A stretch of DNA of 63,550 bases, filler included, from Welwitschia mirabilis (taxonomy: Eukaryota): NCBI GenBank assembly GCA_051453625.1. It is 5 parts of one record of this genome, joined end to end, with 100 filler letters (N's around TTAATTAATTAA, not from the genome) between each part and the next. Parts side by side here need not be neighbours in the genome. Positions count along the whole stretch, not along the records: positions 21,957 to 34,176 come from JBOZIK010000001.1; positions 34,277 to 49,724 come from JBOZIK010000001.1; positions 49,825 to 55,448 come from JBOZIK010000001.1; 2 more parts are not named here. One strand, written 5' to 3'. The translations under genes were made by a program, and so were the position numbers. Below the pieces are notes generated by a model, which saw only the letters and a program-made list of their open reading frames with translations, ran no database searches and was not told the DNA's origin. Positions 28,526 to 54,836 of this stretch are shown here, piece after piece. The first letter of the stretch is position 1; each line of letters starts with the position of its first letter.

Positions 28526-28609
28526 CACTTCCTCTTTTTAAATGTGAAAGACTTGGCAAACCCATGAGATTACAAAATATATGAGCTGCAACAGGAGCAG
28601 AAAGATGTC
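28526..28609 (-). CDS. RCE1: Next coding exon (84 bp, phase 1-1) of RCE1/FACE2, carrying the HxxCN motif
   Basis: Minus strand reads ctgttttttag|GACATC...GGAAGTG|gtatga. It translates to (G)[27 protein letters not shown](G), has no stops and joins in frame to the 54.8-kb exon. Confidence 0.93.
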
Positions 28610-29189
28610 CTAAAAAACAGCAGCTGATATATTAATATGCATGTTTGCGTAGCATAACAAGTTCAAAGTTATTTAGCACTAACGACTGTAACTCAAAGCA
28701 AATTACCAAGAAATGCTTGCCTTAAATAGGAGCTTTGATTTAATGAAAAAATTGCACATTTAAAGAAATTGAAAAATTATTTACAGAGAAATATATTTTG
28801 CTGTCAAATAAACCCATTAATTTGTTAATAATATTCTCTTAGATACACAAAAACATAACTTGTTGTGAAGTATAACCTTACGAACACATAATAAATAATG
28901 CAAGTAGGAGCTCCTCTCTCTCACACACACACCGACCCAAAGAGAAAGAGAGAGAAAGAGATGAATAACCAACTCACAATGTACCTAATGAAACCAAAAG
29001 CAAGGCATAGGAAAGCATGACATTAGAAGCAAGGAAGCAAAACATGTCTCCAACATTTAAAAACATATAAACTATTTAAGAATACTAAAATATGAGAAAT
29101 TACAGATAAGACATGTTAGTTGAAACTATTGATGCCAAATACAACACTTATATATGCGAGACCCCATGACACTTTTATAGTTGGACTCT

Positions 29190-31070
29190 CTTCATAGTTT
29201 GTTTTTAATCCTTCAAGAAGTTATGCACAAATTCATTTCCAAGAGGCAGGCTGCTTGTGTTAAAGGGAGACACATTACTGATCAGGTCCTACTGGTTCAG
29301 GAATTATTCACTCTGCAAAAAATCAGAAAGAAGCTAGCGTTGCCCTCAAACTTGGTATTAGTAAAATTTATTATAGAATATCTCAGAGCTACATGAAGAC
29401 AATTCTTTTGCAATCTGACTTTCCTTTACATTGGACTTCCAAGATGCAAAGCTGTTATAAGGGTACTATTTGTTTGATTCAGATAAATGGTTTTGGGACT
29501 GCATTCTTTCATGTAGGAAATGGATTGAGACAAGGCAACCCCATCTCTCGATAATTGTTCGTCTTGGCTGTGGAAGGACTAAAACAGGATAGTAATATCA
29601 AGCGATAGATCAATCTCTTGTGCCTTGAAAGACACAGAACAGATTAAAGGGACAATTCCAGCAAATGGTTCTGAGAAATTCATTTATTTCCAGTTTGCTA
29701 ACAATCCTTTTTGTTTTTTGTAAAGCATCACAGGAATACTCTATTCGTCTTAAAACAGCTCTTAATGAATTTCCTGAAGCCTCAGAACTTTGTATCCCTT
29801 TCACTAAAAGTAATGTGTTCTTCTAATCTATCAAAGGAAGATCTTCAAACCTTAGTGGAGTAAGTGGCTATTGTTTGGATACCTTACCTCCAAAATATTT
29901 GGGTATTTCCCTTTCTGCAGGAAGAGCGTCAAAAACTTTGTGGCATGAGGTAAGTAAATCTCAAGATTGCAGGTTGGAAATGAAAGGTTCTCTTTCAAGC
30001 TGGAAGACGTCAGCTCGTAAGACTTTCCCTGCAACCTCTCCCTTTGTATATCATGTCTTGTTTGAAGGCACCTGTTTCCATTATGAATCAGATGCATATG
30101 GCTCAATGGCAAGATATTTGTTAAAATTGGAATGGTGGAGGATAGGAAATTAAAAGACTAATTAGAGGAATTTTATCTTGAATCAGGATAATAATAAGAG
30201 AAACTTGCATATGGCTCAGTGGCAAGATATTTGTCAAAATTGGAATGGGGTAGGATAGGGAATTAAAAGACTAACTAGCCTTAACGTGGCACTTTAATAA
30301 ACTCCTATGGCAATCTTGCACTAGAGATAAGCCATAAGCAAATATCATGAAGAAGTACCTTTATGGTAATGCTAGTTTCAAGACTTCCAAGAATTATTGA
30401 TGCTTTACCAACCTGGAGCAAATTTGAAATAATTAAGCACTGGTTTCTTTTTCCAATTTTTTTCAATAAGCGTAACTACACTTGGAAAAGGGATAGCACC
30501 CATACAAACTCTAAAGGCGACACTCTTTACCATAATGATAGAACTGTTGCTGATGTAGCAAAGAGGAATAAAGACCATCTCTCACCATCTTTGATATGAA
30601 GCCCTCCTAAATAAAGTCCCTACTAGGGACAGCCTTATAAAGAGGAATGTTAATGTGCAATTTAATTGTCCATTTTGTGGCTTTGATGAAAATCTCAAGC
30701 GTATCTTTATCAGCTGTATTTTCATTTAACAGCTGTGAAGCCATTTGGAAAGGTTGAAAGCTAATCAATTCAGCTATGGGAATGTCAGAAGTCTAACTAG
30801 GCAGAGGGGACTAAGAACTAGTTACAGAAACAAGGCCCAATAATGGACTCTATTCTTGTCCTGCGTAGTGTTTGAAATTTAGAGATAAAGAAACAGCCAT
30901 TGCTTTCAAAACAGAGGTACTTTGTCTACTTCGTTCTGCAGTAATGCTCTCTTTCACTGGAGGGATACAACTCTTACAAGACTTGATAGATAACCATGAT
31001 ACTGTTGAATCTCGATTTTCTTAGAAATGAATCAGTTTTGACTGGAAAATAATGCAAGATGCAGGGATGT
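29190..31070 (+). mobile_element. 5'-truncated, decayed L1-type LINE (RT and zf-RVT)
   Basis: Motifs ISKRQAACVKGRHITDQVLLVQEL, GLRQGNPIS, KYLGISL and CPFCGFDENLKRIFISC, with frameshifts. Confidence 0.88.
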
Positions 31071-32309
31071 GGGAGATATTGAAAAAAGGAAAGTAATCAG
31101 CCCTTTATCATGCTAAGATGATCCTGCCTTCCTTTTTCCTCTAACCCTCAAGATTATAGGTTTTTTAAGGATAGAATCTTCTATTTTCAGAAAATCTTTA
31201 ATCAGAAAGTAGCTTCTTGAGAACCCCGGGAAGAAACTAGAAGTAGGCCTATATTGCATCTAATAAAGCTCCTATTTGGAGAGCCAACACTCATACCAAT
31301 TTGCTTGCCACCATAGAACGCCTGGGCCACATTCTGATCCAACATGATTCTAAGAACTGTAGATCACTAGTGGCAAATAGGCCATTAAAAGGGTTAAACA
31401 ATGATTTTTCAATGCACAAATCACATTTCAAAGAGATTTCTAAATCTCCTACATAGTTTGAACGCAAAACCACCCTTTGTTTGCATAATATTATATCTCA
31501 AATTCGAGAATCTAAAGTTATTTCCATGACTTGAAGTTTTGGTTTGGACTTAAAAAAAGAGTTGTCACATAATATACCATGATCTTCATAGTTGTAAATG
31601 TAATATAGTGTTATAACATTGTTTTGTACAGACATATTTTGATACTGTTTTCGAAAACCAGAATAAAAAAAAAAAAATAAAAAAAGAACTAGTTTTGAAT
31701 GATTTTTAGCTATGTGATTTCGAGCTATCCAAAAATCAGATCTAAATGATTCCAATAATCTAGATCTCCAAAACACAAAAACGCTTTCACAAATGATCAG
31801 ATCCATCTAACTATGGTTCAATTGACCTTTCTAAAGTTTGCCTAAGCTCGATTCTTGTTTTCCACTCTAAATCGTCAGACACGATTGAAAGCAAAATGCA
31901 AGGCCTAACTATTGCTTAGACATTTTCTATCAAAAACATCCCACTCCAAATATTCCATTCCCATTGGTTACGCTATTTTCTCTTGAACTAAAAGATCTAA
32001 CTCCTTCCCACCAAGCTAGCCTTCCATCATTATCTTCCATATTGGCCATCTACTTTCATTTAGCTTCCCAAACTACATTACTCTCTCCATATGCAATAAT
32101 GCTATGAAGAAACACTGCTACAATGTGTCCTTGCAAAAATAGCAAAACACTGAACCTTTGGCTCTCATACTAGTTGTTATGAAAAATACCAGTATAGCAA
32201 ATATAATGGACCCAGAGGTCCTACGTGTAAACCTGGGTGTTGGCATGTATTGTCCAGGCATAAAAGATAGTCTTCCCTGAAAAAAATTAAAAAATAAAAT
32301 TAACAATTT

Positions 32310-53344: not shown

Positions 53345-54187
53345 CCATGACGATTCTATGTGCAAGAACTCGCGTAGACAAGTCTGGGAATTATGACTTA
53401 TCAGACTTTCCATAATTACCAAGTTTTGTGAGTCCAATAAGTCCAATGACTTTGTGACTCCTAGAATCATCTACATTTTTTCCTAAAAAATGTGCCCAAA
53501 ATAGAAAAATAGTGGAAAAGAAAGGCCTAGCTACAATTAAAAAAGCATAAGGTTTTAAATGACATTGAAATAAATCGTGGTGGGCCCTAGAGATTTGACT
53601 TAAAGGTGCTTTCAACTTCATTTTTTTGTTGCATCAAACATCAAACACAGTAGCTATAGTGACACAATGAAGGATTGAGAGGCTTTCAACTTCATTTATC
53701 CCCTAATGTTTCTGCTTTGGTATTGTCATATTGCCTATTGGGTAGTATCACATGCGATTCCATATTTTTGTGTATTTTGGATGTTGGAGAGCTTGAGTAG
53801 TGAAGAAAACAAACTATTGTTTACTTGATTTAATGTCTCCTAAATGTATTGCATTTTTCTATATTCTAGGTGGTTGCATAACATTGTATATCTTTAGAAT
53901 TTGCAAATGCTTTCCAAAAATGATCACAAATAGTGAAGATATCTTATAATCACATGTTTGATACAGATTTGTTTTCTCTCAATGTAGTGTATTTGAAAAG
54001 TTGCTTAGTATTTAAAAATGCTTTGTGCCCTATTCGAATGAATGACAACAAAGATGTAAGAAAACCCAAACTCTTCTGGCCTTCCCAAATTTCAACTGAG
54101 TTTCCCTTAGTTTGCCAAATTTCGATAATGAAGCCAAGTCTAGGAAGTCGAACAAGTTTTTGTGTCGAGTACCAGCTTCACAACCAC
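53345..54187. mobile_element. Decayed non-autonomous hAT-like element
   Basis: 53965-54187 aligns with 22038-22278. GACT/GAGT repeats at 53365-53460 suggest the left end, which is uncertain. Confidence 0.55.
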
Positions 54188-54773
54188 ATCATACATGATG
54201 TTATTTTTTTCTCAATTCATAATAAATATTTTCTAATCCATGAAGGATTCACCATTTCATCACTTTGAAGATTCTTGTCCATTTGTCATTTAAAACAAAA
54301 ACACGTATTTTACTTAAAAACTTTAGACACTAAAAACATTAGCTACAAAAACCTTTTAGAACATTCAACATATATATCTATTATTGATCAACAAATAACT
54401 TGTTCAATTTTAATACTAAGGACTCACAGTATTATGTCCAATTGTATCACCAATGAGTCCAGCGAATATCACACAATAGCAGTTTACTGATAGTTATAAG
54501 ATTGCTCTCTATTACAATTTATCAACTTTCTATAGTAATTGAAAAATATAAAGGCAACCAATTTCGTTCTACTTGTTTTCAAAGCATTATCTTAAAACTA
54601 AAAAACATTGAACATAACTATGAACTTACTTCAAGATAAAACAGTTAAGTAATCATTTTGCATTGGCATCAACAATATAGAAGAAGAACTTGTAAGATTA
54701 TAATTTGCAGCAACACATAATTGTGATGTTGATGCTTAAGAAAATCCATCACTAATAAAGAAATAGTTCATAC

Positions 54774-54836
54774 CTGTTCGGATGAAGAGAAAAGATGCAT
54801 ACCAGCCAAATATGGTAGTATAGACTAACTGCAATC
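54774..54836 (-). CDS. RCE1: Internal coding exon (63 bp, phase 1-1) of CAAX prenyl protease 2 (RCE1/FACE2)
   Basis: Minus strand reads ggtcag|GATTGCAG...CGAACAG|gtatga. It translates to (G)[20 protein letters not shown](G), which resembles the plant FACE2/RCE1 segment [22 protein letters not shown] (recalled, not searched). Confidence 0.92.

Follow-up and report, generated by a model that had tools for sequence, protein, structure and literature searches.

We analysed a 63,550-nucleotide stretch of the Welwitschia mirabilis genome (GenBank assembly GCA_051453625.1), hereafter called the window, in which two short exons on the minus strand match Rce1/FACE2-type genes. Rce1 is a type II CaaX prenyl endopeptidase of the endoplasmic reticulum (ER) membrane and cuts the last three residues (-aaX) off prenylated CaaX proteins. 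Its plant orthologue is named FACE2 in Arabidopsis. FACE2/RCE1 is described as one of two CaaX endoproteases of plants (PMC12197051). The two exons, called exon A and exon B here, and the intron proposed between them are as follows; positions are counted along the whole window.

54774..54836, minus strand: exon A of an Rce1/FACE2-type gene, 63 bp, phase 1-1, with a predicted transmembrane segment that immediately precedes the second catalytic His
28526..28609, minus strand: exon B, 84 bp, phase 1-1, with the predicted second catalytic His, the eukaryote-type Cys and the Asn (H-I-F-C-N)
28610..54773, minus strand: proposed intron, 26,164 bp in the assembly, GT...AG, phase 1

A preliminary description of this locus had reported stop-free minus-strand exons of 63 and 84 bp, both phase 1-1 and with canonical splice sites, and all of this was confirmed in the sequence, with the lengths and splice dinucleotides re-derived by script. 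Exon A (54836..54774) is preceded by AG at 54838-54837 and followed by GT at 54773-54772, and exon B (28609..28526) is preceded by AG at 28611-28610 and followed by GT at 28525-28524. The donor reads GTATGA directly 3' of both exons, and a T-rich tract with AG is found directly 5' of exon B. Translation of the two exons meets no stop codon and gives a spliced product of 48 residues, in which a Gly codon is shared across the A/B junction (G/GA). Each exon consists of 2 + 3n + 1 bases, and therefore both are phase 1-1. The 3' boundary of exon B (donor 28525-28524) is placed by the GTATG alone, and homology fades past ...GLPSL. The stop-to-stop frames around the exons have 35 codons (exon A) and 41 codons (exon B), so they are missed by lists of open reading frames (ORFs) with the usual length cut-off. 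Within the window, both exons and their immediate flanks are single-copy. The sequence 225 bp downstream of exon B, in what would be the next intron, contains a tandem repeat of ~75-bp units (28075-28300), the copies of which are 86-93% identical.

Database searches connected these frames with Rce1. A phmmer search with the 35-residue frame of exon A against 1.84 billion representatives returned 12 matches at E<=0.001. Two of them, P0013 and P0002, carry the exon A sequence and then the exon B sequence without interruption (...RTGHL.AP..H..CN..G.P), and P0011 has the same order with M-V-W instead of H-L. P0003 and P0010 are low-complexity repeats by appearance, and the other seven are described below. 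P0013 as a query retrieved 32 longer proteins, and PF02517 was found in every one of the 32. The names given to them, where a source name exists, are 'CaaX protease', 'intramembrane prenyl-peptidase Rce1' or 'hypothetical protein', and the proteins come from Sphagnum, Ceratodon, a green alga, Phytophthora, Achlya and many fungi. A profile search gave 555 matches at E<=1e-10; the best 120 of the 555 are almost all from fungi, plus mosses, and no full-length angiosperm Rce1 is among these 120. P0011 and P0013, which are contiguous homologous fragments, exceed the PF02517 cut-off of 22.4 bits (29.7 and 32.5 bits, respectively), and P0011 matches the family over profile positions 59-93. A word-indexed protein search with the 41-residue frame of exon B returned no candidate with three common 5-mers.

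Furthermore, the similarity within the window is confined to the two exons. When 151 Rce1-related proteins were compared with the window by tblastn at E<=0.01, 167 high-scoring segment pairs were obtained, 149 on exon A and 18 on exon B, and none fell outside the two exons on either strand. Residues 242-263 of Sphagnum Rce1 align to 54837..54772 (exon A) with 77% identity, and residues 263-285 align to 28610..28542 (exon B) with 65% identity. The two segments meet at Gly263, and exons A and B are therefore consecutive in the protein. The Pfam Rce1-like domain in Sphagnum Rce1 spans residues 172-278, and thus exons A and B together encode the C-terminal third of this domain. We also built a hidden Markov model (HMM) from 131 full-length Rce1 proteins and compared it with the 4043 six-frame ORFs of at least 10 residues in the window. 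The frame of exon A scored E=3e-10 (profile positions 218-241) and that of exon B scored E=2.7e-7 (positions 240-262), while the third-best of the 4043 ORFs had E=3. The spliced 48-residue product gave a single ungapped alignment of 79.9 bits over profile positions 220-262. Reversing the exon order lowered the score to 52.4 bits and broke the alignment into two pieces, and among 200 shuffles of the product none exceeded 3.0 bits. At the level of sequence, it is thus confirmed, far beyond chance, that exons A and B correspond to consecutive coding exons of an Rce1-type gene.

Conservation of single residues agrees with this identification. All nine columns covered by the exons that are fully invariant in the 131-protein alignment are kept (T, F, G and R in exon A; H, C, N, G and P in exon B), as are 16 of the 19 columns with at least 90% conservation. 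Exon A keeps 10 of its 12 columns of the latter class, and the two differences, S for T and I for L, are both conservative; P0004 has the same S and I. In the third differing column there is His here and Gly in the mostly fungal set, and mosses differ there too. The columns kept in exon B are H, F, C, N, G and P. Rce1 orthologues are reported to have in common a pair of neighbouring glutamates, two histidines and, close to the second His, an Asn/Asp; in eukaryotic orthologues, unlike prokaryotic ones, a Cys close to the second His is reported to be conserved as well (PMC5874806). The H, N and C columns of H-I-F-C-N are each invariant in 131 of 131 proteins, and all three residues are present in exon B. 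By this alignment, H-I-F-C-N of exon B is the second-His motif in its eukaryotic form. Hence three statements of the preliminary description hold: that the peptide is from Rce1 (it matches named Rce1 and CaaX protease proteins with PF02517 from mosses, a green alga, oomycetes and fungi), that the exons join consecutively (they abut in Sphagnum Rce1 and align ungapped when spliced), and that the peptide has the HxxCN motif, which is the conserved second-histidine motif.

The remaining seven phmmer matches (P0004-P0009 and P0012) bear on intron positions in other plants. They are short or odd predicted proteins of 67-222 residues, in which similarity to the exon A frame starts at S-G-x-Q-L and stops exactly at ...I-R-T-G, with unrelated residues beyond. 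After R-T-G these proteins continue with LTNSF, LTHSF, PANSL or ELLFT, whereas the window continues with MNYFF. The S-G at which they start corresponds to the acceptor in the window read as ..TCAG/G... They are evidently mispredictions, in which a homologue of exon A appears to have been read into the flanking introns. Since the limits of similarity coincide with the phase-1 donor and acceptor in the window, both intron positions seem to be common to other plants. The seven read-through proteins also show that the gene is often mis-annotated in plant assemblies. The view that such exons are easily missed by annotation is therefore borne out, both by the shortness of the frames (35 and 41 codons) and by seven database proteins in which the homologous exon is misread.

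The length of the intron depends on how the window was assembled. The window contains 18 N runs, which are 14 gaps after merging of paired runs; the intron holds ten of these runs with 557 N altogether, which make up eight gaps, two of them artificial 100-bp joining linkers and six of them other gaps. Four identical 100-bp spacers, each 44 N + TTAATTAATTAA + 44 N, are found in the window at 21857-21956, 34177-34276, 49725-49824 and 55449-55548. The 12-mer TTAATTAATTAA is its own reverse complement and has a stop in all six frames, which indicates that the spacer is artificial, and we take it to be of the type used for concatenating separate sequences. In a full-text literature search for TTAATTAATTAA, no assembly method was described among the matches listed. 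The window thus seems to consist of at least five blocks that were assembled separately and then linked artificially. The two linkers in the intron are:

34177..34276, no strand: artificial joining linker, 44 N + TTAATTAATTAA + 44 N, flanks without overlap
49725..49824, no strand: second artificial joining linker, 44 N + TTAATTAATTAA + 44 N, flanks without overlap

Two plain 100-N gaps in the interval (45329-45428 and 46952-47051) have flanks that overlap by 53 bp (98%) and 86 bp (99%), respectively. This suggests that these two gaps are spurious and that contig ends were left unmerged. Gap-free intron sequence is contiguous with exon B over 5,567 bp (28610-34176) and with exon A over 4,949 bp (49825-54773). 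Neither of these blocks holds the partner exon, and therefore the intron would have at least ~10.5 kb whatever the middle block is. The ~26 kb proposed at first is thus the length in the assembly (26,164 bp), of which at least ~10.5 kb is firm; because of the linkers and N runs, the full figure is a scaffold estimate.

Mobile-element remnants occupy part of this interval (28610-54773; G+C 35%). The following were recognised:

40143..49239, minus strand: decayed Ty1/copia-type long terminal repeat (LTR) retrotransposon, 9,097 bp, ~35% of the intron
47097-47324, minus strand: copia gag domain, fragmented
45767-45976, minus strand: copia Pol_BBD, fragmented
44405-44653, minus strand: copia SH3_retrovirus, fragmented
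43628-43986, minus strand: copia RVT_2, fragmented
41339-41914, minus strand: 'plant transposon protein' domain match in the copia element
30595..30726, plus strand: non-LTR retroelement (long interspersed nuclear element, LINE) remnant, zf-RVT (PF13966, E=1.5e-6, 29.2 bits; cut-off 27.5)
53981..54186, no strand: hAT-like repeat fragment, ~600 bp downstream of exon A, 69% related to 22059-22276

The LTR pair of the copia element (40143-40577 and 48800-49239) has 84-90% identity. The relative of the hAT-like fragment, 22059-22276, adjoins a hAT-type DUF659 ORF. This ORF is a transposase remnant at 22399-22707 on the plus strand (E=2.6e-19). Recognisable transposable element (TE) sequence amounts to ~9-10 kb of the 26-kb interval, about one third. 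The earlier picture of a TE-filled intron is therefore right in that TE remnants lie between the exons, and is documented in extent for about this third. Long TE-laden introns of plants are documented (PMC3058033, PMC9364684): TEs are reported to account for ~80% of expanded intron space in grapevine (PMC3058033), and introns of >20 kb are reported in gymnosperms (PMC9364684).

Our interpretation is that exons A and B are genuine consecutive internal exons of a plant Rce1/FACE2 gene, spliced across a phase-1 intron lengthened by TEs, and we put its probability at about 0.7. Exon A would encode a conserved transmembrane segment, and exon B would encode a helix with the second catalytic His and the oxyanion-hole Asn (H-I-F-C-N). 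A phase-1 GT-AG intron would divide the Gly codon between them, and this intron may have been lengthened by insertion and decay of mobile elements, namely the copia LTR element, the LINE and the hAT-like piece. We infer from this that splicing joins A to B in vivo, that the locus is a complete, active gene and that the true distance is ~26 kb.

Several results weigh against this interpretation. Neither tblastn, at E<=10 or at E<=0.01, nor the HMM revealed a further Rce1 exon in the window. For the E-E-x-x-x-R exon there was no credible motif match on the minus strand, even with a loose variant, and no tblastn or HMM match. For the first-His exon, with an aromatic residue four positions before His, no credible match was found in the window; on the minus strand the pattern occurs only at 56934-56951 and 22590-22607, a number at the estimated chance level, and neither has HMM support. 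A phase-aware scan downstream of exon B for the terminal exon yielded 176 candidates, none of which resembles the Rce1 C-terminus. Pfam reported no family at E<=10 for either exon peptide alone or for the read-through frame of exon B, and phmmer against PDB with both read-through frames gave no match at E<=10; the pieces are too short singly to be reported by Pfam or PDB searches. On the side of the assembly, the exon B block, the middle block and the exon A block are three separately assembled pieces, the joins at the linkers between the exons have no overlapping flanks and hence no sequence support, and the linker at 55449-55548 lies only 612 bp upstream of exon A, which limits contiguous upstream sequence to 612 bp. 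A scan of the window for the C-terminal end motif gave matches at chance level only.

The search for further exons reached 8.7 kb upstream and 28.5 kb downstream of the exons within the window. The Rce1 queries were from mosses, an alga, oomycetes and fungi, and with such non-angiosperm queries a divergent, poorly conserved terminal exon could be missed. On our interpretation, the undetected exons must be located beyond the ends of the window, fall into gaps or have diverged past detection. It is possible but rather doubtful that the locus is a working Rce1 gene with very long introns on all sides of exons A and B, so that the gene exceeds the 63.5-kb window for a protein of ~300 residues. One minus-strand frame at ~22.5 kb (GHLS..LMSFPALTH) looks like a shortened exon B; it was rejected because it runs antisense to the hAT DUF659 ORF and its DNA is not similar to that of exon B.

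Three other explanations were considered. The exons might be a gene relic, that is, a pseudogene or partial duplicate of Rce1 with the working copy elsewhere in the genome. Only two exons of a ~300-residue protein are detectable in 63.5 kb, their surroundings are decayed TEs, and 48 codons are too few for intactness to prove selection. However, the frames are open, all four splice dinucleotides and the nine invariant residues are kept, and where the exons depart from other plant sequences, the column is variable or the change is one of the conservative ones shared with P0004. Order, strand and phase are exactly as in one gene, and long introns, gaps and the end of the window explain the absent exons equally well. 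A relic is therefore unlikely. It might also be supposed that the assembly is chimeric, with the exons taken from different loci, haplotigs or gene copies and set in apparent order when scaffolds were artificially concatenated, so that the 26-kb intron does not exist as such. The exons are separated by two six-frame-stop linkers and, in addition, by six gaps (eight further N runs), the linkers join sequence without supporting overlap, and the two spurious 100-N gaps (53- and 86-bp overlaps) indicate an assembly of modest quality. Against this, the exons are in the correct order on the same strand with abutting protein coordinates and one copy each, and the gap-free blocks (4.9 and 5.6 kb), neither with a partner exon, make the intron at least 10.5 kb anyway. 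We regard a chimera as quite improbable. That the two pieces are chance open frames unrelated to Rce1 would fit the fact that each piece alone is below Pfam and PDB reporting, but this is refuted by the tblastn, HMM and shuffle results and is left with a negligible probability: both frames stand far above noise in the HMM search (E=3e-10 and 2.7e-7 against E>=3), 200 shuffles of the spliced product never exceed 3.0 bits where the product itself reaches 79.9 bits, and the 149 and 18 tblastn matches have no counterpart elsewhere in the window.

Mobile-element-type plant Pfam domains are spread across the window, and other repeats were observed. A 2.4-kb element is present in two diverged copies (5877-8255 and 19344-21711) with 72-78% identity and a constant offset of ~13.45 kb. 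An RVT_1 reverse-transcriptase ORF lies at 21331-21750 on the plus strand, and the element is therefore probably of a LINE family. An RT_RNaseH remnant (8890-9183, plus strand, E=1.8e-8) lies outside the exon-intron region, and a weak match to copia gag (63010-63228, plus strand, E=4.3e-5) is below the cut-off. A 157-bp exact tandem duplication at 61560-61873, near an N run at 61951-62204, is either a real repeat or an assembly artefact.

The locus can be compared with known systems. It resembles other Rce1/FACE2 proteins (PF02517) in that both exons are 65-77% identical to moss Rce1, abut at the protein level and supply the second catalytic His, the Asn and the Cys specific to eukaryotes. It differs in that only ~48 of ~300-340 residues are seen here; the window yielded neither E-E-x-x-x-R nor the first His nor the last transmembrane helix. 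Rce1 of Methanococcus maripaludis (PDB 4CAD, PMC5874806) has the same proposed catalytic set of Glu, two His and Asn, but is too remote to be picked up by sequence comparison here; with a profile of the Rce1-homologue alignment A1, no PDB chain was retrieved at E<=0.01. Like TE-expanded introns of grapevine, gymnosperms and other large plant genomes, the proposed intron is a canonical GT-AG intron with an LTR retrotransposon and TE remnants. Unlike them, its length rests on a scaffold with artificial linkers, and about one third of it is assigned to TEs.

The gene family and TE-expanded plant introns are both already known and well documented, and the locus would be an ordinary gene with a long intron. 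It would give one more example of TE-driven intron growth and no new biology. If the exons were a relic, this would bear only on the number of Rce1 genes in this species. The finding is of value for annotation: a conserved housekeeping protease gene is carried on tiny exons in a TE-rich, gappy assembly, where ab initio predictors would miss or split it. If the locus is a working gene with very long introns on all sides of these exons, each of the symmetric phase 1-1 exons could be skipped without a frameshift, and skipping of exon B would produce an isoform without the second catalytic His.

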